From Ginglymostoma cirratum (taxonomy: Eukaryota): 64,000 nt of DNA. The translations under genes and the position numbers were made by a program. The stretch covers positions 4,855,380-4,919,379 of the forward strand of contig JAHRHZ010000111.1 of the NCBI GenBank assembly GCA_024137785.1, in the 5' to 3' direction. The notes below the pieces were generated by a model, which saw only the letters and a list, made by a program, of their open reading frames with translations, did no database searches and was not told the origin of the DNA. Position 1 is the first letter of the stretch. Each line of letters begins with the position of its first letter. Shown here in pieces: positions 11,030 to 63,162 of the stretch.

Positions 11030-11231
11030 ATAGCAAGAACTGCAGATGCTGGAGTCAGAGACAACACAGTATGGAGCTAGAGCAACACGGCAGGCCAGGC
11101 AGCATCAGAGCAGCAGAAAAGTTGACATTTTGGATTTCTGAAGAAGAGTCCTGACCCAAAATGTCAACTTTCCTACTCCTCTGATGCAGCCTGGCCTGCT
11201 GCCTTCCTCCAGCTCCAAAATGTATTGTCTC
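11030..11231. mobile_element. Mini-PLE inverted dimer of the terminal repeat
   Basis: Minus arm 11030-11133 includes the tail; plus arm starts at tttctgaagaag (11135); diverged TSD tctcataagaaaag / tctcatatgaacag (11016-11029, 11228-11241). Confidence 0.85.
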
Positions 11232-12737
11232 ATATGAACAGGTTATTTTTCCTCCTCTCTGGCTTCCTGCTACATGAAAAGAGCTTTTTTTTCTCTCACT
11301 CTTCATTCTGATGATGGTGCAGAAATTTCCAACTGATGTGTTGCTTTGTTCTGCTTTTACTTTTTGAGTCTGTAATTTTCTGTAGTAAAAATTCTCCAGA
11401 GGGATACCTCTTCCGAAATGGTAATTAATTGCTGAATCCATTGTTTAGGAATTCTAATCCTTAAACCTTGATACATTTTACTATGTTGATGGATCTATAC
11501 AAATGTAAGTTGTTGTTAATGTTCATTCTAGAATTGCCTTAGTATTATGTATTTCAGATATGATCTGAAGCATGCAGAGACAAGACAGAAAGCTTTGGTC
11601 CTAATGATAAATGTTCATTACATGTGTGGAAGAAAATATAGTACAACATGAGGTTAGTTAAAGAGTAGATGCACTACTCATATATCCAACTGCCAGGTGA
11701 TCACTCCCAAGGAGCTCACCTTGAAGGTGTCCAACATTACTGCAAGAGACACATGATACCAAAATTCCATCTTTTATATAGCAAATAGATCAGTAAATTC
11801 TGTAAATTAAGTTCTGCGTCACTCAGCTAGAAACCATCTGTTCTATTCTTTTGTCAGGGATTAAGCATATTTTCCCTGTTATTGATTCAGAGATGTGTTT
11901 TCACTTTCAGTGTCAGTAATGGCTAGCAGAATGGTGCACTGAATGGCATGGGAAGCATGCTGAGAAGTAAATTCAGTGCACCTCCCTAAGATGTTTTAGC
12001 ACAGCCACCTAATAATGATTTGTTTTCTGGGTTTTGGTTGATTTCTCAGTAGTGGGCATGATGAAAAGCCACAAGAACTGATCTAAAAAGCAATTTGACA
12101 CGGATATGCGAAGATAACATTCAGAAAATGTGTGAGTTGGAAACAAGAAAGGAAGAACAACCTCAATTAAATTTGAAACCCAATTTGAAATGTGACTGGA
12201 CTGTGGGAAAGAGGATAATTCAAAGCACTTGCTCCACTTACCTGTGAGGTGGGTCATTCTTGGTATGGACACTGGTGAGCTCCAAAATCAAAACGGTGTC
12301 GATCAAAGCATTTTGTAAAGGGTTTGAGCAGCATGCTGAAGTGTTAGATCATGTATGAAAGGTGGAAAAAAGATAGAGGGAATTGCTGTATAAGGCAGTT
12401 AGGACCTGAAAGTATAAACTGACATTATGTGATAACTGCTGCCCATCAGACTAAGAAGAACTATTCCTGGAAGAAGCTAACCAGTGTGTGTTTGAGTGTT
12501 CAAGTGTTGCAGTAGCAGTATCATTTAAAAGTACTATGATCAATGTAGTTATTCTTTAGTGGAGCCTTAGACAATTATGTAACTAGCTATTAAGTGCAGG
12601 GTACAATGTTAAAAAGAACCTTTGCTGTTTGCCAAGATTAAGCCTATCTTCTCCTGAAACCTTTGGGTGGGCATCATTCCCCATTTGGAAACAGTAACTT
12701 GGACTAATTAGAGGGATAGGTGTTAGTGAATTTACCC

Positions 12738-12886
12738 AAAACTCTGCAGTGCTGACAAAGCATCACTGAACTTGAGGCATTGACTCTGTTAGTTTCTTTG
12801 CAGATGCTGCCAGACCTGCTGGGTTTCTCAAACACTTTCTATTTTTTGTTCAGATTTCCAGCATTTTTGGTTCTTTGTTTTATTTC
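12738..12886 (+). mobile_element. Old mini-PLE terminal repeat (second subfamily)
   Basis: cagatgctgccagacctgctgggtttctc...cagatttccagca matches the subfamily at 23810, 29080 and 48581. Confidence 0.65.
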
Positions 12887-13920
12887 ATCATGCCCAATGA
12901 TTGTAGTGAACATGACTACAACATATTACCATGCTGATGGGGCAGATTTTGCCATATGTACCATATGTATGTGCTTCACTCACCAAAGGATTTATGCATG
13001 GGTAGAGGTGAAAAATATTGTATTGTTAAGTTTCCATTCTATATTTGAACCACATCCAAACAGTATATTATTGCCTCACTTTCTTGTGTGGCACATTATT
13101 AATTATAAGGTGAGAATTTGCCTCTTAGCTAACACGAGAGAACGCTTGTTGTGAATGGACTGTCTCTGATAGATCCAAGTGCCTGATTTTGGAGGGACCT
13201 CCAAATTGGCCACATGATCATCCTATTTTCTAGAGGCCTCATGTCAGAAATTTTTCAAAGATCACAAAATGAAGGTAGAAAAAGAATTGATTGGAAATTA
13301 ATTTTTTCAGAAAATGTTAAATCCAAAGTAGTGCTCCTGTTTCTCAGTCAGTGCAATCAATTGAAACCTTGCCAAAATAACAGAAATGTGATGTACTTTC
13401 TGTAGCACCAATCTGATCCTATAGAGTTGACCTTTTCACCCCACTTGTCCTACCTGAATTGTTTGGTTGATCAGTTAAGAAGAACATGCTATATTCCCAC
13501 TTCAATCCTTGTAGAATTTTGTCGGCAGATGGAACATAGGAAATAAAATCAAGTGTAGACCATTCAGCCCATCATATTTGTTCCACCTTTCAAGTAGATT
13601 ATGGCTGAGCAGCCATCATCTGGGCCCCATAATGATAGTAACAGTCTATAATTCTCCTGCTTCTCCGAAACCTGCCTTCCCAGAACCTATCAGCCTGCCA
13701 TTGAGCTTCACCTTAAAAGACAGTCATTTATTTCCAGTCACCTGTCCTGCCGACTGAATATCGGATGTATTTTTGCCAACAAAACAAATGGAAACTGTTG
13801 TCCAAGATGTATGCACCTTTTAAATTGCCTTGAAATCTGCTGCATGTCAATGTTTATTTGGGTGAATCAGAGAGGTATTATTCAGAAGCTTCGCTGACTA
13901 ATTGCAAAGGATTGGGTAGA

Positions 13921-14650
13921 GTCAGCTCTGATTCAGTGGGTAACACATTTCACCCTTGAGTCAGAATATGTAGGGTTCATTTCCAATTCCAGCAGCTTGA
14001 AATATTAAATCTAAAATGACAAGCCAGGCAGCAGTGAGGAGACAACAAGGTGTAGAGCTGGATGAACACAGCAGGCCAGGCAGTGTCAGAGGAGCAGGAA
14101 AGCTGACGTTTTGCGTCTGTACCCTTCTTCAGAAATTTCTCAAGAAGGGTCCAGACCCAAAACGTCAGCTTTGCGGCTCCTCTGCTGCCTGGCCTGCTGT
14201 GTTCATCCAGCTCTACATCTTGTTATCTGAGATTCTCCAGCATCGACAGTTCCTACTATCTTTAGCAGTGAGGAGATACTGTCTTTAAGATTAGGGCCTG
14301 ACTGCTCACTTGTGAGGATTTTAAAACAGAGGAATGGAATTCTGTGATTTCATTGGAGCATAGGAAATAGCATTAGGCCATTTGGCCCCCCAACTCTGCT
14401 CCATCATTCAACAAGATCATGGCTGGTCTTCTACTTCAAAGCCATTTTCTTGCACTATCCCCATATTTCTTGATATCCGTAATGTGCCCTGGTCAACCAC
14501 GTAAAACAAGTTACCTTATCACTAATACACTGCTGTATATTGGATGTTGCTGCAGACAAATTTGCTGTTGCATTTGTATTAATTATATTAATTATTACAT
14601 TGATTCCAAAGAGTTTTGGGATATCCTAAACTTGTGAAACGAGCTCTTTT
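13921..14650 (+). mobile_element. Old Deu-domain-like SINE interrupted by a mini-PLE (14043-14263) and a CR1 tail fragment (about 14357-14480, minus strand)
   Basis: tRNA-like head (gattcagtgggtaacac...gagtcagaa...gggttca); later gtgccctggtcaac...tgctgcagacaaatttgctg...ttttgggatatcct. Confidence 0.5.
14043..14263. mobile_element. Mini-PLE spacerless inverted dimer
   Basis: Symmetry centre cttcttcagaaa|tttctcaagaag at 14135/14136; 13-bp TSD agcagtgaggaga (14030-14042, 14264-14276). Confidence 0.92.
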
Positions 14651-15634
14651 TCAAAAAGAGGATAGACTATATGAAGCTTTGTGGACATATTCCTTGTCCA
14701 CAATTTCTTTTTCTTTTGTGGGGGAATTAATTAACAAGGAGAACAGGATTTTAAAGCCTGCAAAAACATCCAAACAAATTAATTATCAAAAGTAGCCTGA
14801 TGCAGTCAAATCCAGTCAAAAACATGTTTCCAGAACCAAACTTCCAGTCTTCACTGTGGGGCCTTCCTCAGCAATCCAAACCTCCAAACAATGTTCTCCT
14901 TCACAAAAAGCCTTGTAACAATAATTTACATTTTCTTTGATCATTTCCTTTGCTTTTGGCATCCTTGTGGTCATTTTAAGGAGCAGGCACCACCAGACAG
15001 TTGAATGATTTGAATCACTGTGTTCCAGAGAAAGTAGCAGAACTGACAAATCGCTTGTATTCTGCCAGCAGATCTTGCTTCGTCTTTAGTGATTGCACTG
15101 GACCGTTGTTTATTAAGCTTCATTTCTTTATTTAGCTCTGGCTCAGTAAACAAAACCGATGAAACTTTTGAGTTCCTTATTTTCCTGCTACATGGTTTCT
15201 GGCTGAGATTTTCATTGTGTACTTTATCTCCATTTAAAGGACGTTGACAAATATTTCAAAACTGTGGCTTCTAAAGGCTATGTATTAATATAATGGATGT
15301 TCACATGGTAATGTCTTATGTTTCCCATGGCACACAACACAATAAGCATCTTCTGATCTAATTAAAGCTGAAGTCATAGGCTGAGGTGGTAAATTAATCT
15401 GCCATAGCAATTGATTGTCAAGGATGTAACAAATATATCAAGGTTATTTCAGTAATTATACTGTTTTCTTGTGACAATCAAATATAAAAATTCTATTTTG
15501 ATAACTTTCACTTCTTGTGAAAAATAGTTTCCTTTATTAAAACATAATTTTTAATCAGATGCATTATTGGCCTTTGTTTTGAAGCTAATTAGATTCAGAA
15601 AAAACTGTTAATCAACAACAATGAAAATTTAAAT

Positions 15635-22562: not shown

Positions 22563-23809
22563 ATAAACATCTGAATTAGTCTCTCAAACCTGTTCTGCTA
22601 TGCAGTAATATTATGGCTAATCTGTTTATGTTTTGAACTCCACATTTCCATCTGCTCTGGATAAAGATGTATTCTCTTGCCTAACAAGAATCTATCTACC
22701 TCTGCCTTAAAATATAGTTGAAGACACCACCTCCAGTGCCTTCTGAGGCAGCGTCTCAAATCCCACAGGCTTGTAGGAGAAATAATTTCCTGTCACCTCT
22801 GTCCTAAAAATCGGAACCTCTCCCCCTCCAATTAAATCTGCTGTACTTATTTGGTTTTGCTCCCTTGTGGCTCCAGACCCACGACACTGTGGTTGACTCT
22901 TTAAGTGATCCCCCAAAACCCTTCACTCTGTCATTTCCCCCATCCCTAAATGGCCTAACAAGTCACTTGGTTGCAACAAAATGTGACAGAAAAGCAGAAA
23001 GGGCTGGTTTCTGACCACACTGTACACCTGCTGTGATCTGTCCCTGTAGTTTCTTTCTTCCGCTCCCACACTGAAACCCTTCTCTGTTGTATTTAATAAC
23101 AGCACATTTATGGGCTCTTTAAAGTTAGAATTTCTGCTGGTGCTACCTTCGTTGAAACAAGCATTGTGTTTTTCATTGGAGGAAGGCAATGATGATATAT
23201 AATGGCAAATCTCCTTTGTTTTACTGCCACCCACTGACAATAACAGAGCAAGAGACAAAACCTCAGTGCCTGACTAAAGTATATCTATAAGCAGAAAACC
23301 TAAAGTTGAGATGTAATTTTATCTCAGTAAGACACCATTATTTTAGCAAGTGTTTCCTTGTTGCATCTTCTGGTCTGCATATTTAATTCAAACGATGGTA
23401 TTACAAAGTAGGGGGCCATTTAGCCCATAATACCCCTGCTAGCACCAGATCTTTGAGAAGGCCTTCCAATAAGTCTGAGTTTCCTGCCTTTTCCGGCAAC
23501 TCTTTGAGGTTTTCCATGTACTTGCTCAATTCAAGCTTTGAAAATGAATCTGCTTCACCACCCATTGAAATCATCATCGATCACTACGTTAAAGGAATTC
23601 TTCTCCTCTCCCATCTGGCTATTTGTCCAAATACTTTAAATCCTTGATAGTGAAAGTATGCAGGAGACCTGCCAGCATCCATTTTAAAAAAATAGAAAGC
23701 TTAATCTCATGCCTTTTTGGCTAACTATCAAGTTTTTAAGTAGGCTTTCTCACTGTTTCCTCCATTGAGATGTCTCACTGTAACTTTAACCACGTACCTC
23801 ATTATTTGC

Positions 23810-23967
23810 AGGAAAAGCCCAGCAGGTCTGACAGCATATCTGGAGAGAAATCAGAGTTAACATTTTGGGTCGACTGATACTTCCTCAGATCCCCCAGACC
23901 TGCTGAGCTTTTCCAGCTATTTCTGTTCTTGTTTCCGATTTACAGCATTCATTGTTCTTTCAGTTTT
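23810..23967. mobile_element. Mini-PLE inverted dimer (second subfamily)
   Basis: ggaaaagcccagcaggtctg vs cagacctgctgagcttttcc inverted; TSD tacctcatta(t/a)ttgc (23795-23809, 23968-23982). Confidence 0.85.
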
Positions 23968-24678
23968 TACCTCATTAATTGCTTGTCCCCATCCCTATGG
24001 AGTCCTTTATGACTGATTCTACTCCCATCTTACCACATGCCACTTTGGAAACAGCCGCAATTCACTGCATTTTGGCTGAAAGACCAGCATCCCATATGCC
24101 TGTGCCAACTTTGAGAGGCTGCCATGCACTAGAACAAGCATTGGCAATCAGCTTTGCCCCTCACTGGCAAGGTCATGGCACAGCAGCCAGAAAGTCATGT
24201 TGCTCATAGCACAAAGCCAGCACGGTTGGCACTCCTTCACACGTAAAAACTAACCCTCTTATTTTAGTCACTGTTTAATCACCAGGCCACACATTATACC
24301 TGCCCTTAGCTACAACCTACCTTAACATCCTCTCACGTCAGCACTACTCTTTCAGAAATACCTGCAGCCTGTTTTTATGCAAAAGGGGAATATCAGGCAA
24401 GCAATCAGATAAATCCAAACATGAGCTTTTACTTACAGCCAGCAAAAGGAACAAAAATCAAAATCAAAAGAGGCAACCAAATACTGGAATCATGACCACA
24501 TCTAGTCTACAGCCCATGCTGGCCTGCTGCAATTCATCTATTAGAAATAGGTGTCAATCAGGTCCAATTGCCTTCTGGTGTCCAATGCAGCTGATCTCTG
24601 TCTTCCATCAGGAAAGCTTCCTCCAGCTCATTGTCCTCATGCTTCTCCTCAAAAGACTCCTTATGTTACACAAGCTCT

Positions 24679-29078: not shown

Positions 29079-29079
29079 G

Positions 29080-30420
29080 TAACAAAAACAAAAATTGCTG
29101 GAGAAACTTAGCAGGTCTGGCAGCATCTGTAAAGGGAGAAACAGAGTAAACATTCCAAGTGCAATATAATTCTTCAGAACTAAAATGAGTTGGAAAATGG
29201 TATATTTTACAACTTTGCCAGAGGCATTTCAGAGAAATTTCTGAAGAAGGGTCTAGGCCCAAAACGTCAGCTTTCCTGCTCCTCTGATGCTGCTTGGCCT
29301 GCTGTGTTCATCCAGCTCTACACCTTGTTATCTAAGATTCTCCAGCATCTGCAGTTCCTGCTATCTCATCTAGTCTGCATTTGGTCTCAGTGATGTAAAA
29401 GAGACTGCATTGTGAGCAGTGAATGCAGTAGACTAGACTGAAAAAGTACAAGTAAATCATTGCTTCACCTGTAAGGTGTGTTTGAGCCTTGGACTGTGAG
29501 AAGTGAGGAGATGAATGGGCAAATGTTACACCTTTAGTAATTGTATGGGAAGGTGCCATAGGGGAGTGAGGAAGCTAATGGAGTGAACTAGTGCATCATT
29601 AGTGGAAACTATCCTATGGAATGCTGACAGTGGAGAAGAGAGGCAAACGTGTTTGGTTGTGGTATTCTTCTGGATCCTTTAAATTTGGAGAGTCCATGGG
29701 GTGGAATGTAGACAAGGGGAACCATATTGATGTTCTGGGATGGAAATAAATGGGTAAAGGCAGAAGTATGGGACATGATCAGAAATGGCAAAGCACCCTG
29801 TTGATCATTGTGGTGAAATGTTCACAGTTGAGAAAAAAGGTCATATCAGAGGTGGTCCACTGGTATTATTGGAACAAATGCAACAGATATGGAGAAAATG
29901 GGAAAATGGAAGGCAATCCTTGCAAGAAGTAGGGTGTGAAGAGATATACTCCAGTTAACTAGATGATTTATCTTGGAATCAATTTTGGTGGACAGTCCCT
30001 CCTCAGAAATGGAAACAGAGAAGTCAAAAAAAGGAAGATAAGATTCAGAGATGGACCAGACGAATGTAAGAGAATGGTAGAAATTGGAAGTAAAACTGAT
30101 GAATTTTCCCAATTCCAGAGAAGAGAGAGAAATGATCTTCAATGTAGTGAGAAAGATTTGTGGATGGCCTAAGTAGGAGTGGAACAAAGAATATTCCACA
30201 TATGCTACAAAGAAGCATAACTGGGATCCACGCAGATACCCCTATCCACACCTTTGCCTTGGACAAAATGAGATGAGTTACAGGAGAAGTTGTTCAAAGT
30301 GAGAATGAGCTCAACTCGACAAGGCAGGGTGGTGATGGATGGGGGCTGTTCAGGCTCTGCTCCAAGAAGAGCCTTCAGACCATCCTGATGGGGGTGGATG
30401 TGTAGAGGTACATGTACTTG
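29080..30420 (-). mobile_element. Old Penelope element (RT, GIY-YIG, terminal repeat)
   Basis: LVYCIHCSQCSLFYITETKCRL (GIY-YIG); FISFTSNFYHSLTFVWSISESYLPFFDFSVSI (PLE RT); terminal repeat at 29080-29180. Confidence 0.88.
29238..29367 (+). mobile_element. Mini-PLE monomer inserted in the older Penelope
   Basis: tttctgaagaagggtctaggcccaaaacgtcag...cagttcctgctatctc. Confidence 0.9.
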
Positions 30421-38817: not shown

Positions 38818-39153
38818 AAGATGGTGTTGCGATGGTTATGTCACTGGACCAGTAATCTAGAACCCCAGGCTAATCGTTTGGAGTCCTGGGTTCAAATCCA
38901 ACCATGAAATGGTAAAATTTGAATCCAATTAAAATATCGAATTTAAAAAAAAGAGTTGACCTAATGGTGCCAATGTAGGCACTGTTGATTGTTGTTAAAA
39001 TAAACACATCTGGTCCATTAATAGCCTTCAGGGAAGGAAATCTACAATCATTACCTGGTCTGGCCTATATATGACTCCAGACCAAGAGCAATGTAACTAT
39101 TTTCTGTCTGATGGGTGATACATGTTTTCTGAATTAGTGTCACCCACATCATA
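38818..39153 (+). mobile_element. tRNA-SINE family 2
   Basis: B box gggttcaaatcc; cagggaaggaaatc...cctggtctggcctatatatgactccagac. Confidence 0.8.
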
Positions 39154-39450
39154 AATCATAGAATCCCCACAGAGTGGAAGCAGGCCATTTGGCCCATTGG
39201 GTCCAAATCAACCCTCTGAAGAGCATCCCACCCAGATCAACCCCCCTACCCTATCCCTGTAACCCTGTATTTCCTATGGCTAATCCACCTACCCTGCACA
39301 TCTTTGGACTATGGGAGGGAACCGGAGCACACAAAGGAAACTTACGCAGACATGGGGAGAACGTGAAAACTCCACACAGACAGTCACTCGAAAGTGGAAT
39401 TGACCCCTGTCCTTGTGCTATGAGGCAGCACTGAGCCACCATACTGCCCC
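39154..39450 (-). mobile_element. HE1-type SINE
   Basis: aatcatagaatccccacagagtggaagcaggcc tail; ggctaatccacctaccctgcacatc core. Confidence 0.88.
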
Positions 39451-41027: not shown

Positions 41028-42022
41028 TAGATAACTATTCACATTATGCATTAACAATCTGGAAGATGGAACTGAGGGTATTATTTCTGAGTTTGCAGAT
41101 CACACAAATATAAGTGGAGGGACAGATGGTGTTGAGGAAGGGAAAAGGCTGCATAAGGACTTTTACAAGGAAAGAGAGTGAGCAAAGAAGTAGTACATGG
41201 AATACAGCGAAGGAATTTGTGAGGTTATGCACTTTGGCTGGAAGAATAGAGTTGTGGACTATTTTCGAACAGGGAAAGGCTTTGGAAATCTGAAGCACAA
41301 AGGGACTTAGGAGCCCTAGTTCAGAATTCTCTTAAGGTTACCAACCTCTTAAGGTTCAGTTAGAAGGTAGGAAGGCAAATGCATCGTTAGCATTAATTGT
41401 GAGAGGGAAAATGCATCGTTAGCATTAATTGTGAGAGGGCTAGAGTGCAACAGCAAGGATGTACTGCTGAGGCTGTTTAAGGCTCTGTTCTGACCACATT
41501 TGGAACATTATAAGCAGTTTTGTGCTCTGTATCTAAGGAATGTTGGCATTGCAGGGGTTCCGGAGATTTACATTGATGATCTCGCGAATGAAGGGCTTGA
41601 GGAGCAGTTGATGGCTTTGTGTCTGCACTCAGTGAAGTTTAGAAGGATGAGAGGGAAATCATATTGAAATATAAAGAATAGTGAGAGACCTAGATGTAGC
41701 AGATGTGGAGAAGACGTTTCCACTTGTAAGAGTGACTACGACCTAGATTGAAGGCACAACCCTTTAGAACTGAAATGATGATGAATATCTTCAGTTAGAT
41801 GGTGGTGTATCTTTGGAACTCATTACTACAGAGGGATGTGGAAGCCAAATCACTGATTGTATTTAAGACAGAGATAGCTAGGTTCTCGATCAGTAAGGGG
41901 GTCCAAGGCCATGGGGAGAAGCCTGGAGAATGGAGGTAAGAAACATATCTGCCATGATCTAATGGTGGAGCAGGCTCTATGGGCCAAGTGGCCTAATTCT
42001 GCTCCTATATCTTATGGCCTTA
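41028..42022 (+). mobile_element. CR1 LINE 3' fragment
   Basis: tttgcagatcacaca (FADD-derived), tgtgaggttatgcactttgg, 3' tail ggcctaattctgctcctatatcttatgg. Confidence 0.9.
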
Positions 42023-42427
42023 ACTTATTATGGTGTCTCTCTCCCATGTGGAGGCACTAGAAAGTCTCCAATTATAGCAAGCTGTCTTCCTCTAACGTTT
42101 CTTCTCTTATAATTTTAATGTTTTGCCTTTATAAAGGGCATTGTGTGTACATTGGCACAAAAGAAAATCTTCAGCGCACTTGTTCATTAAAATGATTGGA
42201 CATACTCCTGGATGTTTTTGGCACATTACTATTGTGTGCCAAATGCTCCATTCAGTCAATTGCCTTTTTCTGCATTTCCAAACATTACGAGGAATTATAT
42301 AGCTTTTTGTAAGATACATGTCACACAAACAGGCCATTTATTGCATCATGGTGTTATGCTTCACTTCTGCTTCCTCCAATTTTGTCTCATCTAAATCTAC
42401 CATTGTGACTCTCTATTCCATTCTCTG

Positions 42428-45965: not shown

Positions 45966-46977
45966 CGGGATCTGATGTTAAATGTTCAACTCTGTTTAGA
46001 ATATCAAAAGCCAACTTTGTTATTACTAATGATTTTTTTTAGGTAGCCCCCTATCATAAAGGCACATTTTGCAATGCTAAATTAGCATTAGCGCTGAGGA
46101 TACATGACAGCATTATTCTGACCTGAAGCGTTTGCAGATGGTTGCTTTCAAACAATTTAATTTGAGGAGGTTGGACTGAATATCAGAGGTGAATATTTAG
46201 CTCAAATTTGCATTAGATACCTGAACTGTTTGTCAAGCAGTGTCAACTGCACTTTCACACAGCGTTTCGACTGGGATGATTAAAGTCCATTTTACTCCAA
46301 TTTGTTTAGCCAATCTTCAGATGATATGATTTTTGCATTTTCTTTGCTCCCTTTCTTGCCAGCTATCTCACCCTTCACACTAATGGAAGTGTCTTTGGGA
46401 ATAATTTATGATGGCTCAGTATCTACAGCTCTGACCTATGCACATTCCTCAAACATGATGCATGCTGTGTTTCCTGGAGTGGGATACATCAACAGTAAAA
46501 ACAGTATAGAAGACAAAGCAATATCTTCCAGGCTTTCTGCTTCTGTTTACTGGAACATTCACAAGTATGGACATAGGTGGTACTCAATGTTCGATTTATG
46601 CCTTCCCAAAGCAGCAAAACAGGCAAATGAAAAAATTTGGTCTAATCTATTTTGCCTGCTTCAAAATCCTGGACCAATCTGAACAGCACATCAATTTCCT
46701 ATTAGTGCTAGTGCTGCATTCCAACTCCCTCAAATTACATCAACATACCAGGGCCCTTTTTGATTTATAGCTGTCTTGGATTAAAACTTGGCATACTTGT
46801 AGAATATAGTGCCTGGAATTTAGATGCATAGATTATTATAGCACACAAAGAGTCCTTCTGCCCACAGTGTCATCCCAGTTAACAAGCACCTATCTCCTCT
46901 AATCTAATTTCCCAGCACTTAGTCCATTACATTGCATTTCAAGTTATCTGAATAAAACTTAAATACCACCATGGGAC

Positions 46978-47820
46978 TGTAAGACAATAAGACATAGATG
47001 CAGAATTAAGCCAATCGGCCCATTAAGTCTGCTCTGCCATTTGATCATGGTTAAAATGTTTCTCAACCCCATTTGCCTGCCTTTTCCCTGTAGCCCTTGA
47101 TCCCCTTACTAATCAAATAACTAGCTGTCTCTGTCTCAATGACACTCAATGACCTGGCCTCCACAGCCTTCTATGACAATAAATTACATAGATTCATTAC
47201 CCTCTGATTGAAGAAATTCCTCCCCATTTCAGTTCTAAATCGTCATACCATTTCTCTGAGGCTCTCCCCTCGGGTCCTACTCTTTTCGACCAATGGAAAC
47301 ATCTTCTCCTCATTCACTCTACCCAGCCCTCTCAGCATTCAGTAAGCTTCAATGAGATTCCCCCTCATCCTTCTGAACTCTATCGAGTACAGACCCAGAG
47401 ACCTCAACTGCTCTTCATATGAAAAGCCCTTCAATTCCGGATCATTCTGGTAAACCGACTTTGGACCCTCACCAAGGTCAGCACATCATTCCTTAGACAC
47501 AGACCCAAATCTGTTCATAATATTCCAAATGCAGTCTGACCAGACCCTTACATAGCCTCAGCAGTACATCCCTGCTGTTGCATTCTAGCCCTCTCAAAAT
47601 GGATGCCAACATTGCTTTTGGCTTTCTAACTGCCAACTGAAACTATGTGTTAACATTAAGAGAATCCTGAACTACGACTCCTAAGTTTTTTTGTGCTTCA
47701 GATTTCCAAAGCCTTTTCCCATTTTTAAAAATGTCCATGCCTCTAATCTTCCTACCCAAGTGCATAACCTCACATTTCCCCACAATGTATTCCATCTGCC
47801 ACTTCTTTGCCTACTCTCCT
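46978..47820 (-). mobile_element. CR1 LINE 3' fragment
   Basis: taagacaataagacatag tail; colinear with 27622-28450 and the reverse complement of 41200-42020. Confidence 0.9.
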
Positions 47821-48580
47821 TATTGACCCCTCTACTAAGGAGGAACCTTTATTCCTATCAATCCTACCTAAGCCCCTCAAAACTTTGCAAATCCCAAACA
47901 AGGAAGGTTTATTCTTATCAATCCTACTTATGTTCCTCATCATGTTGTATACACAAGAAGATCCCCCACAGCTTTGTCTGATCTAAGGAAAACAACTCTA
48001 GCCTACCTTCATAACTCAGGCAAATCCTGATGAACCTCCTCTGCGCCTGTCCAAAGCTAGCATATCCTTTATGTAGTGTTGCACACAGTAGTCCAGCTAT
48101 GGCTTAACCAACATCATTTACAATGCCATCAAAATCTACCAGCTCTTGTATTCTATGCCTCAACTAATAAAGACAAGTATGCCAAATGCCTTTTAACCTG
48201 TCTACCACCTGTTCTTTTGCCTTCAAGGGTCTATGGACAGGCACACCAGGCTCCCTAATCCTCTGTACTTGCTAGGGTCTTGTCAATCCTTCCTATGTAC
48301 TCCCTTGTCCTGCTGGTTTTCCCAAAGTGCATTCTTTCATTTTTTAGGATTAAATTCCATTTTTCACTGTTTGCCCATCTGACCAACCAGTCTGTAGTCA
48401 AAAGCTCTCTTCTACGCTATTTATTATGCCATCAATTTTAGTATCATCTGTAAACTTGCTGGTAAAAACCACCTCTATTTGTGTTTAGGTCATTAATGTA
48501 CACTCCAAGCAGCACAGGGCCAAGTTCCAAACCTTGCAATTTGCCACTTATGCAGGCTTCTAGTCACAAAAGCAACCTCA

Positions 48581-50754: not shown

Positions 50755-52535
50755 AGTGACATCTTGAAAAGAGTCCATATTACAGAAGGGGGGTACTGGA
50801 GATCTTAGTATGCCTAAAGGTAGATAAATCCCTGGGAACTGATCAGGTGTTACCCAGAACTTTATGGGAAGCTAGGGAAGAGATTGATGGGCTCTTGCAG
50901 AGACGTTTGTATCATCGACAGCCATGAGTGAAGTGCTGAAAGACTGGTGGTTGGCTAATGTGGTGCCATTATTTAAGAAAGGAAAAGTCAGGGAAGTATA
51001 GATTCAGGCTATTTTCCCTGGAGTGTCGGAGATTGCAGGGTGACGTTATAGAAGTTTATAAAATCATGAGGGGCACAGATAGGGTAAACAGATAAGGTCT
51101 TTTCCCCAGGATAGGGAAAGCTAGAGGGCATAGGTTTAAAGTGAGAGGTGAAAGATATAAAAGGGACCTAAGGTGTAAAGTTTTCATACAGAGGGTGGTG
51201 CATGTATGGAATGAGCTGCCATAGGAAGTGGTGGAGGCTGATACAATTACAACATTTAAAAGGTATCTGGATAGGTATTCCTTTTTACCTTTATGTATTC
51301 ATCGGATGAGGGCATTGCTAACCATGCAACATTTATTGCCCATCCCTAATTGCCCAGAGGGCAGTTAAGAGTCAACCACATTAATGTAGGTCTGGAGTCA
51401 CATGTAGGCCAGACCTGGTAAAGATGGTAGTTTCCTTCCCTAAAGGACATTAGTGAACCAGATGGGTTTTTCTTCCCCAACAATTGGCAATGGATTTATG
51501 GCTATCATTAGAACCTTAATTCCAGATATTCAAATTCCACCATCTGCCATGGCTGGATTTGAACCTGGGTCCCCGGAACATTATCTGGGTCTCCGAATTA
51601 ACAGTCCAGTGATAATTTCACTAGGCCATTGTCTCCCCATCAAGGAATGGTAAATGAATAGGAAGGATTTAGAGGGATATGGGCCAAATTCTGGCAAATG
51701 GGACTAGATTAATTTAGGATATCTGGTAGGCCAGGTCGAGTTGGACTGAAGGGTCTGTTTCCATGCTGTACAGCTCTATGACTCTCTGACTCTATGATTC
51801 AGTGAGCCTTACATCAATGGTAAATAACTTGTTGGAAGGGATTCTGAGGGATAGGATTTACATGCATTTGGAAAGGGAAGGATTGATTAGAGAGAGTTAA
51901 CATGGCTTTGTGCATGGGAAATCATGCCTTACTGACTTGATTGAGTTTCTTGAAGAGGGTGACAAAGAAGATTAATAAAGGCAAAGTGGTAGATGTTGTC
52001 TATGTGGACTTCAGCAAAGCATTTGCCAAGGCCCTGGATGGTCGACTGGTTATCATAGAGTCACTACAGTGTGGAAGCAGGCCATTCAGCCCATCGAGTC
52101 CAAACGATCCTCTAAAGAGAATTCCACCAGACCACAGATGCTAAGGGTTGACATTATAGAGGTTTATAAAATTATGAGGGACATGGATAGGGTGAATGTC
52201 CAAGTATTTTTCTGAAGTTGGGGGGGGGAGTCCAAAAGTACAGGGAATATCTATAAGTTGAGAGGGTAATGATTTAAAAGGGATTTGAGGGGCAACTTTT
52301 CCACATGTAGGGTGGTGCATGCATGGAATGAGCTGTCAGAGGAAGTGGTGAAGGCAGGTAGAATTAGAATTACAACATTTAAAATGTATCTGGATGGGTA
52401 TAAGAAAAGGAAGGGTTTAGAGGAAAATGAGCCAAATGCTAGCAAATGGGACTTGGTCAAATGAGATGTCCAGTCAATGCAGACAGGATGGGCCAAAGAT
52501 TCTGTTTTGGTGCTGTACAACTATATTACTCTGAA
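50755..52535 (+). mobile_element. Nested CR1 stack (CR1 A interrupted by CR1 B at 51008-51795, itself interrupted by a SINE)
   Basis: gctaatgtggtgccattatttaagaaagg (ANVVPLFKKG); VDVVYVDFSKAF; gattcag duplicated at 51001-51007 and 51796-51802. Confidence 0.88.
51278..51638 (-). mobile_element. tRNA-SINE family 2, near full length
   Basis: Reverse complement of 61828-62186. Confidence 0.88.
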
Positions 52536-53596: not shown

Positions 53597-53807
53597 GTGG
53601 TCATGAGAGTAAAGCACACTCTTGAAGAAGTTTGCTTATAATAGCCATCTTTCAGTTGGTATAAGTATTTCTGGCATTATGCTGTTATTTGGGAAGCTTT
53701 ATTCATTTGATCTTGTCATTGAAGTCTGGGTCCACAATGTGGAAAGAATACTTTCATTTTGAGGCAAATGACACCAGAGCAGATAAAAAGCAACAAGTTG
53801 TCTCAGG

Positions 53808-54006
53808 ATAATTACAAGGTGCAGAGCTGGATGAACACTGCAGGCCAAGCAGCATCAGAGGAGCAGGAAGGCTGATGCCCTGGGCTTAGACCCTTCCTGG
53901 GGTGTTGGCCTTCCTGCTCCTCTGATGCTGATTGGCCTGCTATGTTCATCCAGCTCTGCACCTTGTTGTCTCAGATTCTCCAGCATCTGCAGTTCCTACT
54001 ATCTCT
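53808..54006. mobile_element. Mini-PLE inverted dimer inserted in Gypsy gag
   Basis: acaaggtgcagagctggatgaaca... vs ...tgttcatccagctctgcaccttgt inverted; tail cagattctccagcatctgcagttcctactatctc. Confidence 0.88.
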
Positions 54007-56735
54007 AGAGTAGTTATCCTGACAGCTTGTGATCCTATAGCTTTTTCAGTTATTAGGAGCCTAACTTTTCCTGATGTGCAAGGTATCAAACTGTTTCAAG
54101 AGTTGAGATTTATTTAACGAATATGATGACCCCAAGGCTTCTCTAATTCTGAGATACTGTCAGTTTTACTTAGCAACTTGAGAACTAAGGAATTGGATTG
54201 GGACTTTTTGACTAGGTTAACTCTTAATGCTGAGAGACAACTTGACATGTGGGATTAATGATGTAACTGTGCAAAAGCACCAAATAGCTCAAGCCAAACT
54301 GGACTTTAAATAGGTGCTACAACTAGCTTTATCATTGGAAAATTGGGCAAGTGGAGCATATGAGTTGTAGGGTACTCTGGGAGTGGACACCCTTGCCAGT
54401 CTGACTGATCATGGGGAACACCTCTTAAGGAAGGTAATTGCATAGCCTCACTCAGGAAACATCCTGAATAGAGGCTCTCTAGATTTGCCCACAGCAAAAA
54501 ATGCTCAGACAAATGGTTAAATTATTTTCAGAATCAAGGCTTACAAGCCATTGCAGTTGCTGCTGGATTGCAGACTCAAGATGACAATAAAATCCCACTA
54601 GTACTAAATTGAGTGAGAACTCATACACTGGTATCCAGGAGAATGCACACCCTAGAAGGCCCACTACATCTGGGTTGGAACAGTTAAATTGCTAAGCAAC
54701 ATCCAAATCAGAATCAATCAAAATAAACATTGGGTTAAATGGTCACCCAGTTCTAATGGAGGTCAATACTGGCATGGTTGTCTCAGTGATTGCAGAACTA
54801 GTCTTTAACAAAACTCACTCTGGACTCCAACCCTTGTGTTTGTGCAAGAGTGCAGTTACACTGAGAACCTATGCAGATTTAGATTTTTAGATTGCAGATA
54901 CAGATTTAGGGTACAACTTTGGTTCTGGTCTCTTATGGGAAGCAACTGGTTCAATTATCACTGATTGTAGTAAAAGGCTTGGGCCCAAATTTGATGGAGT
55001 GAAATTGGTTGAGGAAAAATTCACCTAAATTAGCTCAATATTATTTGATTAGAAAATGGCTGCCTGATTGATGTCCTCATTGAATACCTGGAACTATTTC
55101 GAGGAAGTTCTAGGGACTGTCAACGGAGACAAGGCCACCTTACATGTTGACCAGGAAGCAATTCCACAATTCTACAAGGCCCACTCAGTGCCATTTGCCT
55201 TGTGAGCAAAAGTAGAGGCTGAAATCAGAAGGGTGGAAAGCAAAGAAATCATCAAACCAGTCCAGTTTGTGGAATGGGCAACACCAGTTATACTGATTGT
55301 GAAGCCCAATGGATTGGTTCACCTTTGTAGGGATTTAAAACACAGTATTTAATTTTCACAGCTTGATAAATACTCAGTCCCTCATGTAGAGGATTTATAA
55401 GCAAAGCTGACAAGGGGACTGTCCTTCACAAAGCTGGACATGAGCCATGTATACTTACAATTGCAGTTAGAAGAGGATTCCCAGAATTATGCTACAATTA
55501 ATACTCATAGGAGTTTGTTCCAATATGAGACTGCCATTTTGGGTATTGTTAGCCTGTGCAATTTTTCAGTGGACAATAAATGACATTTTACAAGGTGTAC
55601 CCCAGGTTGCCATTTATCTAGATTATGCACTAATAACAGTGAAAACCAATAAAGAGCATTTTGGGAACTTGGAGATCGTACTGAGATGTTTCTCCCAAGC
55701 AGATGTATGTCTTCGGGGGGGGGGGGGGTGTGAAATTGCACATTCTAGACATTCCAAGTGACTTATTTTGGCTACAGGGTCAACAGAACCAGGTTACAGA
55801 AGATAAAGGAAGAGCAATCAAAGGTGTGGCAGTTCCCACCTCTGTACTGGAGTTTAGGTCTTTCCTTGAGCTAATTCAGATATAACCTGGCCAATATTTT
55901 GACATTGTTGCATCCACTCCAAAAAGTGTCAGCCTTGGAAATGTTAGCATAGCCAAGCCATAGCTCTCTGGGACTTAAAGAAACAGTTATCATCCCCTGA
56001 GGTATTCACATACTATGGTCACAAGTGAGATCTGGTGTTGACATGTGATGTCTCCCCATTTGGCATTGGTGTAGTATAAACGCATTGGTGGCCAAATAGA
56101 GACATGCCCAACAATATAATAATACAGGTCTTTGGCTAATGCAGCATGTAAATATGCCCAGATAGAGAAGGAAGGTTTGTCGGTCACTTGGAATCAGGAA
56201 GTTCCACTAATACCTTTGCAGGTGTAAATTTGTAGTAATGGACTACAAATCCCTGCTACTTAAGTAGGCCTACATAAGGATGACAAGGCAGTCCTACCCT
56301 TAGCTTCAGGCCAAATTCAACAGTGGGCTCAATACTAAGTGTGTATAATTATAAGTTGGAGCATTGTCTGGGAGGCCAAGTAACAAATGTAGGTGCATTG
56401 AGCTGACTCCTGCTGGCAGATAAATCACCAGTGGTACTGCTACTGGAAGGGTTCATGAAGACTTTAAATTTTCTGGACACACTTCCAGTCACAGCTGACA
56501 ATATCAAACTATGGATGCAGAAAAATCCAGTTCTAGTAAAACTTAAACAGCTAAGGGTGATGGGGGAAACCAGAGGTGTGTCAGAATCAGAATTGAAACT
56601 TTTTTGGACCTGAAGAAGATGGTATATTATTGAGGAGCAAGAGTGCTTGCCCTAAGCAAAGGTCACTACCAGGTACTGGCTGAACTCCACCAGGGCCATC
56701 TAGGGGTTTCCAAAATGAAGATGTTGGTGAGAAGT

Positions 56736-56858
56736 TTCTGAAGAAGGGTCCAGACCAAAAACGTTAGCATTCCTACTCTGCTGCCTAGCCTCCTGTGTTC
56801 ATCCAGCTCTATACCTTGTTATCTCGGATTCTCCAGCATCAGCAGTTCCTACCATCTC
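56736..56858 (+). mobile_element. Mini-PLE monomer inserted in Gypsy integrase
   Basis: ttctgaagaagggtccagacc...accatctc; perfect 11-bp TSD tggtgagaagt (56725-56735, 56859-56869). Confidence 0.92.
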
Positions 56859-57941
56859 TGGTGAGAAGTGATGTCTAGAGGCCAGGACTGGATGCAGATA
56901 TAGCTGCATTGGTTGGACATTGCCCAGTGTGCCAACAAGAACAAAAATTGCTGCCAGCAACTCACCCATATTCATGGGAATGGCTGGGTAACCCTGGACT
57001 CTGTTACATATCAACTTTACAGCTCCTTTTATGGGCTCACCTTTCTTAATCACTGTGGATTCCCACTCAATGACTGGATGTGCATAGAGTTCACTTGTCA
57101 AGCACTAGGACGATAGAAAAACTGCATGAGTTTTTAATACATGGACTTCTGGAAGTGTTAATCACAGAAAATTGGCCATTGTTTACAAGCATGGATTTTC
57201 AGTATTTCCTAAAGTTGAATGGCATTCCATTATATATGGTCAGCTCCATACCATCCATCCAGTGGTCTGGCAGAAAGAGCAGTCCAAACTTTCAAGGTAG
57301 GTTTAAAGAAACACCATAGTTTCAGTAGATACTAAACTGTCCCAGTTCCTAGCTGATAATAGGACCATGCTTCATGCAGCTTCAGGGATAGCTCCAGCAG
57401 AGTCTCTAATGGGGAGAAGACTCCACATGAGGATAAATCTGGAGCTGGGGGTGATGGTGAGATGCCATCAGGAATCCCAAAGCTAGACACAACGCTTTGC
57501 TAAGTGAGATGGTTTACTTCCAGGAATGAAGTTTGGTATAAAAACCACAGGAGTGGTAAGAGGCATGGTCAATGAGGTCAGGTCGAATAGGTGCGACAGT
57601 CTTGAAAAGCATATGGACCAAATGAAAGCTGCAAAGGGGGCAGAAGCAAATATGCCCCACTCTTTGGAATAGTCATAAAGGTGGTCAGAACTCATGGGTC
57701 CTCCATTTCCATCAAGTGTTGAAGACCCTTCAGAATCTAAAGTGAACATGGCAGAGCTACCTTGATCCCTTTGCACCTGAAGAGAATGAATTGCTTCTGA
57801 GATGCTATGGGCTGAAGATGCAAACTACTGTGCATTACACCACCCGAATCAGAGGCAGACTTGGAGGAACCTGACACAGTGCTAAAACAGCCCAGGAGGA
57901 GCTACAAAAAAGTCAGCCTCTACCTGAGACTCGGGAAGGGA

Positions 57942-59015: not shown

Positions 59016-59336
59016 GATCATGGAATCCCTGCAGTGTGGAAGCAACATCACATCCACACTGACCCTCCCATCCAGACCCACACTATCCCATAACCCTGCA
59101 TTTCCTATGTCTAATCTGCCTAGCCTGCACAACCCTGGATACTGAGGCAATTTAGCATGGCCAATCCCTCTAACTACATATTTGGTCTGTGGGAGGAAAC
59201 CAGAACCCACAAAGGAAACCCATGCAGACCAGGGGAGACTATGGAAACTCCAGACACAGTCACCCAAGACTGGAATCAAACCTAGGTTCCTGCACCTGTG
59301 AGGCAGCAACGCTAACCATTGAGCCACTGTCACCCC
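59016..59336 (-). mobile_element. HE1-type SINE
   Basis: atcatggaatccctgcagtgtggaagc tail; gtgaggcagcaacgctaaccattgagccac head. Confidence 0.87.
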
Positions 59337-59469
59337 AAAGAGTTTCAACAATAATTTTCAAGGGCAGTTAGTTGTACCACAGCGATTTCAAAATCTCACC
59401 AAACAGGTTGAAATGATAACATTTTCAAGGTCATTAAAAGCCTTTGCTCCGTATTCAATGGACATTTCT

Positions 59470-59855
59470 CTAGAAATACATCCAATTCTATTGGGGTTCA
59501 ACAGTATAGATGCTGAGAGGATTTTTCACAACATTCAGCAATCTAGAACAAGGGACATATGTTCAAAATCAAGGGTCTTTTATTTAAGATGCCAATGAGG
59601 AGAAATTTCTCCTCCCAGAGGGTCATTAGCTTTTAGAGGAGGGGCTCTTTCCCAATGATAAGTAGTGGCAGGGTCCTTAAACATTTTCAAGGCTTTGTTA
59701 GATAGTCTTCTAGTTGGTAAGGAAATTGGGGGTTATCGAGGTCTGACAGGAAAGAAGAAAAGGTCGAGTTAGAGCACCCATGACATTGGTTTATAGTTCA
59801 GACTTGAGAGGTTGAATGGCCTACCTCTGCTCATAAATATTTTCATGTTATGAAG
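59470..59855 (+). mobile_element. Old CR1 3' fragment
   Basis: gatgctgagaggattttt..tctagaacaagggacat; gaggttgaatggcctacctctgctc tail. Confidence 0.65.
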
Positions 59856-60413
59856 ATGTGTAGACAGAATTAATTCTATTAGTTAATCCTCTTCAGAGCA
59901 GCATAAGGCTAGGTTACAGGGATTAGGGAGGGATATAAGTTTCCATCTTATTCTGATAGCTCAAAAATATCATTGAAATTAAAATCACATTGCTTAAAAA
60001 TATTCTTGGAATTTCGAAATTTAAGGCAACAAATGCACTCAATCTTTACAATGTATCTTAAAGCTCTGTTGCTACATTATCAGTCTGAGCTTTTAAATTA
60101 TTTTTGCTGAAGTTATCTTTTAGATATTTTAGAACTGAACTCTCATGGAAGGCCTTCGGAGTTGTGTGGAGATAATTGCAGAATAACTCCTATTTGCAAA
60201 GATGTATTTACTAATCTGAGGTAAAAGCAGTGTCTACCGAAACAATGAAGCAATCTGTCAGTCTGAAAAGAGGAAATAACTGTGCTACTTCTGTTGAACA
60301 TTGCACTATAAAAGCCAAATCAACCCCTATTTCACTGAGTGATTTAACCCTTAATGCCCCTAGCCTGTGAAGTGTTTCCATTGCTCACTTCCAAATTTAT
60401 GGTGTGAGCCTCA

Positions 60414-60543
60414 GATGAAAGGAAAACACCTGCTGGACTTTGCCATCCTGATCATATTCCACTGCTCCTTTGTGCCCAGGTGAGATAATATTGGCTTCTA
60501 GTGCAATGCACATTGCAGTTGAATAGTCTGTGGGCATGCACTA
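60414..60543 (+). repeat. Probable donor copy of the 61461-61599 duplicate
   Basis: ctgct(g/a)gactttgccatcctgatca...gttgaatagtctgtgg aligns with 61461-61599. Confidence 0.93.
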
Positions 60544-60644
60544 GCTGAAAAATCATACGTTGGCAATACTAGAAAATAAATGAAATTACTTTTGCCATCC
60601 CACACCCTGTAATAATAAAAGATGCTGCCTTCTACGAAATCAAT

Positions 60645-60950
60645 CATAGAATTTGAATAAAATTTTGCAGATCCTTCTGAAATGAAATAGGTCATTTGGC
60701 CCATTGTGACTATGCTGCATTTTGAAACCGCCATCTCATTAGCACCACTCCCCTGCATTTTCTGCATATCCATGAAATGTTCTCCCCTGTAAGTAATTAT
60801 CTAATAACTTGCAATAATCTGTTATTGAACCTGCAGCCACTGGTCTTTCAGCCACTGCTTTCAAGATCATGATAACTTGCTGCCTCCAAAAAAGATTGAC
60901 TCTTCCCCATCTGGTTCTTTAGTCAATCACCTTCGATCTGTGACTTCTAG
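60645..60950 (-). mobile_element. Old CR1 3' fragment
   Basis: gaaataggtcatttggcccattgtgactatgctg tail motif. Confidence 0.55.
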
Positions 60951-61059
60951 GTGTTGTGTCAAAACAGTTGGATGCTGTTTGCTGTGAAGTCATGGATCTG
61001 AATGTCAATGGGAATAAATACCACACTGTAGGTGAAGTTACCATTGTCTAGAAAGAGCA

Positions 61060-61232
61060 CTGGGAGCCAGTTTAGTTCAGTTGGCTGGAGAGCTGGCTTC
61101 CAAAACAGTGTAATACCAAAAACATGGGCTTAATTCCCACACTGGTTGAGGTTACCATGAAGGATTCTCCGCTCACCAGAGATATGATGGCTCTGTGGTT
61201 AAATCACTACCCAGTCATCTATCTCTAATGAC
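61060..61232 (+). mobile_element. Probable tRNA-head SINE (another family), partial
   Basis: ttagttcagttggctgga (A-box-like) and gggcttaattccc (decayed B box). Confidence 0.45.
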
Positions 61233-61460
61233 ATGCACCATGCACCACGCACACACGATTGACTAGACAATACCTAATGCAAGTCAAAGCCTGGTACAAG
61301 ATCGCCATATATTATTTAGCATGGATGTTTAATAATAGAGTTACATAGCATGGAAACAGATCCTTCAGTCCAACTCAGCCCCTCCAGACAGATATTCTAA
61401 ACTGATCGAATCCCATTGCCAGTACTTGGCCCATATCCTTCCAAGCCCTTCCTATTTATG

Positions 61461-61599
61461 GATGGGAAACATCTGCTAGACTTTGCCATCCTGATCACAT
61501 TCCACTGTTGCTTTGTGCCCATGTATTGATGCCAGCTGAGGTAATGTTGGCTTCCAGTGCAATGCATATTGTAGTTGAATAGTCTGTGGACTTGTACTA
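61461..61599 (+). repeat. Direct duplicate of 60414-60543 embedded in CR1
   Basis: Direct alignment; CR1 sequence flanks both sides. Confidence 0.93.
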
Positions 61600-61827
61600 A
61601 ATGTTGTTAATGTACCTGCCTCCTCCACTTCCTCTGGCAACTCATTCCATACACTCACCACGCTCTGCATGAAAAAGTTGCCCTCAGATCCTTTTTAAAT
61701 CTTTCCCCTCTCACCTTAAACCTATGGCCTCTAGTTTTGGACTCCCTTACCATGGCTATTCACCCTATCTAATCCCATGATTTTACAAACCTCTATAAAC
61801 CCACCCTTTAGCCTCTGACACTCCAAA

Positions 61828-62186
61828 GGGGAGTCAATGGCCTAGTGGTATTATTGCTGGACTATTAATCCAGAGACCCAGATAATGTTCAGGGGACCCA
61901 GGCTCGAATCCTGCCATGGCAGATGGTGGAATTTGAATTTAATAAACATCTGGAATTAAGAATCTAATGATGAACATGAATCCATTGTTGATTGTCAGGA
62001 AAAACCCATCCAGTTCACTGGTGTCTTTAGGGAAGGAAAATGCCATCCTTACCTGATCTGGCTTATGTGTAACTCCAGACCCTTAGCAATGTGGTTGACT
62101 CTTAACTGCTCTTTGGGCAATTAGGATGGGCAATAAACGCTGCCTAGCCAGCAATGCCTTCATCCTGTGAATGAATTTAAAAAATA
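61828..62186 (+). mobile_element. tRNA-SINE family 2, near full length
   Basis: A box tggcctagtgg, B box ggctcgaatcc, tail gggcaattaggatgggcaataaa...tgaatgaatttaaaaaa. Confidence 0.9.
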
Positions 62187-63037
62187 ACTTCAGCCTTTCC
62201 CTATGGCGCAAACCCTCCAATCCCAGCAACTTCCTTGGAAGTATGTTCTGAATCCTTTCAAGTTTAACAACTTTGAAAATAAATCTGAAGTTAATCTTTG
62301 GCTTGCCTTCTCCTTGACTAATCCATACTTAACCAAACTCAGTGTGCCATAAGTACCATGACAAAGACTGGGGATTACCAATTCCTGTGCCACTAAAATC
62401 AGTTTCTCCTTTATATAATCTCTCAAAATCCTACAAGATAATTAAGTCCTCCATAAAATCTTCCCTTAACCTTTTCTATTGCAGGAACAATGATTAAGAA
62501 TAATGCAACTCAATGCTACAACATGATATGAAATTTAACCTCCAGATACAAAGTTATACTTTGAATTCAGACAGTTCATTGTGCTCTGTGCAAGTTATCT
62601 TTGTGTCAAACTTGAATCTTCATTGTGGGAAATGCATTGCCGGTTCAAATATATGTTGGCAAAACGTTTTTCAGTTCTTTGATATCACTAAGACCTATCA
62701 ATTAGAAATGAGAGAAGTTTTTTTGATTACTTTCTCACTTATGTAAGTGTATAAGCTTCTCCTCAAACAAAACTCTATTAGTCTCATGTCTGTCTCATGT
62801 TTGTGAGTTCCCTTTTTCTATGTCTTCTGAATTCTCTATCAGACTTATGATGTCTGGTTTATGTTAAGACCTCTAGTTTTGGGTCTCCTCTCGCCACAAG
62901 TGGCAATTGAGGTCAAACTGGATGGTCCTCAAACTGATACAGGGACCACGATGAATGGCAGACTCACGCCCATTGACTAATTTCATGCTGCATGCTCAAT
63001 TGAATGTTATCCATGCCAAGCAATAGTCATCCCAGTG

Positions 63038-63162
63038 ACAGTAGGAACGGCAGATGCTGGAGATTTCTGAAGAAGGCTCTAGGCCTGAAACGTCAGCTTT
63101 CCTGCTGCTCTGATGCTGCTTGGCCTGCTCTGTTCATCCAGCTCTACATCTTGTTATCTTAT
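63038..63162. mobile_element. Mini-PLE with an inverted tail
   Basis: 26-nt tail on the minus strand (63038-63063), body on the plus strand from tttctgaagaagg (63064); perfect 11-bp TSD tcatcccagtg (63027-63037, 63163-63173). Confidence 0.92.

Follow-up and report, generated by a model that had tools for sequence, protein, structure and literature searches.

Background

Penelope-like elements (PLEs) of the endonuclease-bearing (EN+) Neptune and Nematis clades are described, in the accessible text of PMC8557442, as having pseudo-long terminal repeats (pLTRs), a tail of 30-40 bp and an adjacent inverted truncated copy; a CX2-5CxxC linker together with two cysteines in the GIY-YIG endonuclease marks these clades. 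Penelope elements are already known to leave copies that are truncated or inverted, to carry tails, to occur as solo pLTRs, to start transcription within the pLTR and to enclose host sequence between pLTRs; the solo pLTRs are partly ascribed to recombination (PMC3846280, in part). Here we describe short insertions in a 64,000-nucleotide (nt) stretch of the genome of the shark Ginglymostoma cirratum (contig JAHRHZ010000111.1 of assembly GCA_024137785.1, positions 4,855,380 to 4,919,379, forward strand; the whole stretch is called the window). These insertions comprise the last 97 or 130 nt of an autonomous Penelope element that is abundant in the genome and do not appear to form a separate family, and the sharp 5' boundary at which they stop (the "wall") is most likely the capped start of that element's mRNA, as judged from genomic sequence. 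Positions in the element are counted from the first T of TTTCTGA, which is 0 (29238 in one short copy of the window, 5106 in its long copy).

The shark element resembles EN+ Neptune and Nematis elements in its reverse transcriptase (RT) with a C-terminal GIY-YIG domain, its CX4CxxC linker, inverted 5' copy, target site duplications (TSDs) of variable length and minimal hammerhead motif, and in an optional tail, here 33 nt, at one end. Unlike those elements as the accessible accounts present them (5' truncation, solo pLTRs), it has a fixed end at the putative start site, a G that may come from the cap, and oligo(A)-G junctions. The anole Poseidon element PAc likewise shows, in vitro and with uncleaved RNA as the main substrate, internal priming at two RT start sites that bound the tail, with hammerhead cleavage dispensable and both target strands nicked. 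Its open reading frame (ORF), however, runs from helix II, and in the parts of that 2024 paper available to us the later steps are left unvalidated (PMC11167929), whereas the main ORF of the shark element starts at about +169 and its copies appear to record the complementary DNA (cDNA) ends and their sequel. Transcription starts within the pLTR are also described for Drosophila virilis Penelope (PMC2377424, in part) and Adineta vaga Pen2a (PMC3846280, in part). Pen2a has a putative TATA box and initiator, as the shark element does; D. virilis Penelope, in contrast, is transcribed from an internal promoter that lacks a TATA box, and an intron separates its start from its hammerhead, where the shark element has a TATA-like box upstream and the hammerhead at the putative start. 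Non-LTR retrozymes, as far as the accessible account goes (bioRxiv 10.64898/2026.07.22.740005), are also short, non-coding, hammerhead-bearing, PLE-derived and often monomeric, but they are defined as head-to-tail arrays, while the shark copies are mostly monomers or head-to-head pairs, bounded by the putative start site and without a lineage of their own. Copies in the window and the sampled stretches are monomers or head-to-head, with a few direct dimers (L269, L278), although no genome-wide scan for tandem hammerhead arrays was made.

In retroviral minus-strand strong-stop synthesis, the primer sits inside the RNA close to its capped 5' end, and the resulting cDNA, short and of defined length, can move to another template. 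The shark element would share the internal priming near a putative capped 5' end and the short defined cDNA able to change template; it would differ in that the primer is nicked target DNA and not tRNA, that both cDNAs start in the 5' region, and that strand transfer may not be obligatory. L1 twin priming is a further parallel: there, two target-primed cDNAs give rise to inversions, and full-length junctions carry a G (PMC11702581, in part). A start-site wall, a cap G or an oligo(A)-G junction was not found for Penelope elements in the accessible literature, a search that left subscription papers, Dfam and Repbase outside; Figure S2 of PMC11167929 plots genomic copy coverage, and such a wall could already show there for the anole.

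Results

A sharp 5' boundary

Copies were collected from a 4.36-Gb genome in 100 stretches picked by position and blind to the repeat (617,902 readable bases, 200 kb of which flank the window). The 111 arms found start at -3..+3 in 29 cases, at -40..-4 in one, upstream of -40 in 31 and downstream of +3 in 50. Removal of 18 arms at N or edges and of 8 with identity below 80% leaves 85, with 21 starts at -3..+3, a single one at -40..-4, 26 further upstream and 37 further downstream. The initial annotation had called the 5' boundary non-random from the window's copies; it holds outside the window too, with a peak of starts at TTTCTGA and the wall at -2..0. If the sample is representative, the genome holds some 150,000-200,000 arms that start at the wall. 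Exact-pattern searches of the readable genome give at least 9,441 starts at -1 and at least 6,211 at -2, against at least 111 at -7 and at least 1,561 at +4, lower bounds that are only roughly comparable because the patterns differ in length.

The boundary is not a property of short copies alone. Among 30 copies picked solely for the 5' region of the ORF, 9 start at -5..0, 4 at -56..-21 and 17 downstream, and long elements therefore meet the same boundary. At some wall junctions (L296, L316, L323) the first 7-15 nt of the element are duplicated, as if the RT had re-annealed to the same RNA and recopied its start.

The autonomous parent and a sister family

The long head-to-head insertion at 3881-5234 (Table 1) encodes a GIY-YIG C-terminus and is the parent type of the short insertions. 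A protein search of the genome returned 131,921 first-look candidates. Frames in long copies reach 796 amino acids with RT and GIY-YIG matches; for the 796-residue frame, in L088, the RVT_1 match has E 2.9e-5 (24.3 bits, below the 29.6 cut-off) and the GIY-YIG match E 5.3e-5 (above its cut-off). A CX4CxxC linker joins RT and endonuclease, and two cysteines lie within GIY-YIG. On its predicted protein the parent is a Neptune-like autonomous EN+ Penelope element, placed at the Neptune/Nematis level by the linker motif, and it has the terminal repeat, optional tail, inverted 5' copy and variable TSD of such elements. Near-full-length copies run from terminal repeat through tail, ORF (from about +169) and 3' region to a second terminal repeat. 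The N-terminal part of the main ORF holds a variable Thr/Ala/Pro tandem repeat, and in the young subfamily a short frame upstream of it starts from an ATG within the hammerhead box (L185:573-1570, in minus-oriented numbering, and L089:5066-5200).

A second, older Penelope family is represented in the window at 12738, 23810 and 29084, the last a copy overlooked in the initial annotation, and elsewhere in L036, L052 and L119. Its long copies show endonuclease-region homology upstream (38-50% identity). This sister family has a wall of its own: 16 of its 46 arms start at -2..+3 and none at -97..-3, while 8 are long (4 of them the reference copies) and 22 shorter. The start there is an initiator-like CAGTT, with TATAAA-like text about 29 nt before it. 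The family also has a palindromic GTTAAC cut region and, in one case (L346), an oligo(A)-G-CAGTT junction.

Evidence for a probable capped transcription start

In most long copies the wall lies at one distance from a TATA-like TATTTAT. In 66 long copies this motif begins 31 nt before the A at -1 in 48 and at -30 or -32 in 4, and it is absent from 14. Both this spacing and the initiator-like CA of the wall presumably fit the consensus for such promoters.

The base that precedes the element at the wall is often an extra G. Among the first 100 matches listed for each position and tallied by hand, G precedes the start in 48 at -2 and 49 at -1, against 18 at -7 and 17 at +4 (a script verified the first 30 of each wall list, with 9 and 17 G). 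Pooled, 97/200 at the wall against 35/200 at the control positions gives a Fisher p of 5e-11, and p runs from 5e-11 to 3e-3 according to the control chosen; the -7 control becomes 17/63 once 37 apparent long copies with a deletion are removed. Genome-wide, G makes up 20.6% of bases. Full-length L1 insertions carry an extra G at their 5' junctions, which is ascribed to the cap (PMC11702581, in part).

A second kind of evidence comes from junctions in which something other than target DNA stands upstream of the wall. Among 61 wall junctions at loci not picked by their junction letters, element body lies directly upstream in 12: six have a G untemplated by the element (three of these after oligo(A)), five show CC or CCA microhomology and one starts at -6. 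In a collection of A-run junctions that was likewise unpicked, the majority proved to be monomers or runs of A and T at the centre of a dimer. A further six body-oligo(A)-G-start junctions, and three without G, come from loci that give structure but no rate, because they were picked partly for the G. In one case (L340:1400-1881, G000:C23), enclosed by a 14-nt TSD, an inverted arm ends in the complement of G-CA and is followed by a 213-nt stretch foreign to the element, in which AATAAA, a polyadenylation-like signal, precedes (A)11 by 16 nt; next comes G-CATTTCTG (G-CA-TTTCTG), which continues through the tail to the TSD. A source for the 213-nt insert was not found among the sampled loci. This structure is most simply read as the product of a jump that left the cap for a host poly(A) tail.

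The sharp stop of the short copies most likely marks the point at which the capped mRNA of the autonomous element begins. A "defined transcription start" had been listed in the initial annotation among several alternatives, and it is the one that the TATA-like box, the G excess and the oligo(A)-G junctions favour.

A pause or template-switch hot spot, where an RT copying a longer template halts at an upstream C-run (giving G-rich cDNA) or at a hairpin between TTCAGAA (about -25) and TTCTGA, would be an unlikely cause of the wall. A C-rich tract does begin at -2, the -25 region pairs with sequence around the hammerhead in an upstream-extended fold, and 26/85 arms continue past the wall; but four folded 5' segments are no more stable than their shuffles (z -0.3 to -1.1), and the sister family has its wall without a C-run directly upstream. 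A pause also leaves unexplained a G excess limited to -2 and -1, the oligo(A)-G junctions and the distance to a TATA-like box in both families.

Short and long copies probably share one lineage

The initial annotation took the short insertions for a distinct non-autonomous, ribozyme-delimited family mobilised by PLEs. Its view that they are independent, PLE-driven insertions with a fixed template end holds; its view that they are a family of their own is not supported. In a tree built over 96 columns from 38 short and 35 long arms (42/70 inner branches unresolved) the two kinds interleave: the label switches 24 times, where shuffling gives a mean of 24.6, and well-supported branches force at least seven of these switches. 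Every subfamily, whether young, middle or old, contains short copies, near-full-length elements share their start, and the TATA-like box is found upstream of the stretch that short copies retain and not within them.

That the short copies propagate as a retrozyme-, SINE- or MITE-like family (after short interspersed elements and miniature inverted-repeat transposable elements), from short or fold-back masters, is accordingly quite improbable. Their very high number would suit such a family, as would the short nearest neighbour of 30/38 short arms, and hammerhead-bearing non-autonomous PLE derivatives exist (bioRxiv 10.64898/2026.07.22.740005, in part). Long arms, however, also find short neighbours in 21/35 cases, the tree at its limited resolution does not cluster short apart from long, every subfamily has short copies, and dimer junctions differ from copy to copy, unlike what descent from fold-back masters would give.

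The hammerhead adjoins the boundary but probably does not set it

A minimal type I hammerhead motif begins at the wall (Table 1). Read against the description in PMC4209133 (in part), its predicted cut falls after 5136 (+30). Rfam, searched up to E 1, returned no hammerhead match, only microRNA and snoRNA matches below gathering score, and the four folded segments gave no hammerhead fold as monomers. The core is intact in 10/31 wall arms and decayed in most copies. The boundary looks like that of a ribozyme because the hammerhead begins at the putative RNA start. In RNA that extends further upstream, the hammerhead box could form pairs with TTCAGAA at -25, and a pyrimidine tract with a CAG at about -20 (window 5070-5112) resembles a splice acceptor.

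It is very unlikely that RNA processing (hammerhead cleavage, another nuclease, or splicing to an acceptor) makes the 5' end. The wall does adjoin the hammerhead and follows the pyrimidine tract and CAG, 6/85 arms start at +28..+34 in raw alignments, and one long element (L190) starts exactly at +31. The predicted cut (+30/+31) and the CAG both lie away from the wall, though, the latter by 20 nt, which is why the splice-acceptor idea was dropped; no AG stands before -2, and cleavage would leave no G. The cut site fails as the boundary since only 1/168 refined junctions falls at +31, which bears out the earlier remark that self-cleavage does not explain the wall. A minor class of cleaved starts at +31 is possible.

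Paired 3' ends

The 3' ends of copies cluster at +96 and +129, in agreement with the two internal RT start sites on either side of the tail in the anole element (PMC11167929). Elements with the tail at just one of their ends have been described in qualitative terms (PMC8557442, in part). In 73 head-to-head pairs, 69 of them classed, 58 join one +96 end to one +129 end, 10 have two long ends and 1 has two short ends; mixed pairs are expected at 49% by chance (p 2e-9). An inverted partner accompanies 17/31 wall arms, and dimer junctions vary from copy to copy. We infer that the mixed ends reflect two coordinated priming events on two nicked strands. For the inverted ends of rotifer Penelope elements, a 2013 paper proposed that an antisense template primes its own copying (PMC3846280, in part). 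Such self-priming would fit the head-to-head layout, the inverted partners and short palindromes at some junctions (14130-14141), yet is highly improbable here, given that monomers and direct body-to-wall junctions have the same boundary, that G and oligo(A) are sense-oriented and that pairs combining a +96 with a +129 end are what two primings on sense RNA would give.

A proposed route

The following steps would account for these copies. RNA polymerase II would start at the CA just before the hammerhead box, wherever the 5' terminal repeat is long enough to include the TATA box. The RT-endonuclease would nick both target strands and prime at the internal +96 and +129 sites of the mRNA, usually one per strand, and each cDNA would extend to the cap, often gaining a C. 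A cDNA sealed to the target would give a monomer, one joined to the second cDNA a head-to-head dimer, and one that jumps to an RNA 3' end a partial tandem or captured host RNA. Short copies, which lack the TATA box, would likely be dead ends.

A bolder version, which as a whole we regard as possible but doubtful, is that PLEs replicate through a retrovirus-like strong-stop, in which a protein dimer primes both target strands at two internal sites of one capped mRNA, copies as far as the cap and must then jump to an RNA 3' end. A jump to the 3' end of the element itself (which the 3' hammerhead perhaps trims, with about 30 nt of terminal redundancy left) might give long copies and new pLTRs, a jump to a host poly(A) tail might give retrocopies, and failure might leave the 97/130-nt copies that fill the genome. 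Jumps onto oligo(A) ends are present among the junctions. The R2 RT in vitro jumps templates with non-templated additions, usually A (PMC8857657, in part).

Several observations weigh against a capped start and the route built on it. N makes up 374,884 of the 600,000 bases first drawn and covers many dimer centres, and later draws were placed beside readable ones. A script control over the sampled loci finds G at 12/23 wall starts against 36/99 other starts (p 0.24); set against the same 36/99, the 97/200 at the wall gives p 0.049, and the script control has G at 12/44 where the reference base is C. Starts at 0 and +1 carry T (12/16) rather than G. The G might also stem from C added without a template wherever an RNA ends, or in part from microhomology between the two arms. 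The start site is deduced from DNA alone, and the in vitro work that serves as analogy concerns a Poseidon element while the shark element appears Neptune-like. A cap G carried into seamless long copies is not significant: G stands at -2 in 18 of the first 100 listed against 9 of the first 100 at -5 (by hand; p 0.10), and the totals are similar (1,077 and 1,021). Transfer from cap to 3' end is therefore not established as the main route of long copies, and seamless ones may come from tandem read-through transcripts instead.

Features of the window

All of the ORF-less short insertions of the initial annotation were found again, though not all are one terminal repeat: most are, while 12738 and 23810 belong to the sister family. 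TSDs had been claimed for five insertions, and those at 11030, 14043, 23810, 56736 and 63038 do exceed a null of random pairs, against which 12738, 29238 and 53808 show none beyond chance. The window has 11 main-family arms: 6 start at -1 or 0, 2 are long (-656 and -471) and 3 start at +8, +21 and +32. The flanks of the 53808 dimer (53790-53810 and 54012-54032) are mutually inverted and not direct repeats, a fold-back that looks as if it reached into the target.

Table 1. Penelope-derived features of the window (window coordinates; extents in element numbering)
Feature	Position	Strand	Details	TSD
Long head-to-head insertion, autonomous young subfamily	3881..5234		minus arm 4634-3881, to +96; plus arm 4635-5234, to +129	15 nt, 3866-3880 / 5235-5249
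TATA-like box TATTTAT	5074..5080	+	first base 31 nt before A at 5105; missing from short copies; putative promoter role
Initiator-like CCATTT	5103..5108	+	putative transcription start 5104 (C, -2) or 5105 (A, -1), the wall
Minimal type I hammerhead motif	5105..5140	+	CUGAUGA box 5109-5115, helix II, GAAAC-GUC 5129-5136; possible 4-bp helix I
Inverted dimer, older subfamily	11028..11231		minus arm +21..+129, plus arm -1..+96, G before A	14 nt, 2 mismatches, 11016-11029 / 11228-11241
Degenerate monomer, older sister Penelope family	12747..12889	+	start near family's CAG	within chance
Inverted dimer	14040..14262		both arms from -1/0; ends +96 and +128	13 nt exact, 14030-14042 / 14264-14276
Inverted dimer, sister family	23810..23969		minus arm from 23889-23890	13 nt, 1 mismatch, 23797-23809 / 23970-23982
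Monomer, sister family	29084..29181	-	starts at family's wall	weak candidate, null p 0.03
Monomer	29237..29367	+	spans -1..+129	within chance
Inverted dimer	53811..54005		both arms short of wall (+8, +32)	within chance
Monomer	56735..56858	+	spans 0..+129	11 nt exact, 56725-56735 / 56859-56869
Tail-only arm and plus arm	63038..63159		inverted tail-only arm 63038-63063, GA link, plus arm -1..+95	11 nt exact, or 14 nt with 2 mismatches, 63024-63037 / 63160-63173

Elsewhere in the window, 41171-42035 and 46967-47821 hold inverted matches of 72-273 nt at 74-88%, which suggest either one old insertion like a long interspersed element with an inversion or two opposed copies. Dispersed SINE-like repeats (932-1159, 9494-9691, 39153-39449, 59176-59336) and CR1-like repeats (1702-2099, 50998-52449) are also present, which we take to be of the HE1 and HER1 types.

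Discussion

These copies bear on how PLEs complete a copy after priming within their own RNA. If the wall is the capped mRNA start, the short copies would be fossils of an early copying step and not a ribozyme-defined family. They seem to document in the genome what follows priming: the point at which the cDNA stops, the strand that serves as template, the formation of head-to-head and partial-tandem copies, and the capture of host RNA. For annotation, short copies on the order of 10^5 should be grouped with the autonomous element and not with retrozymes or MITEs.

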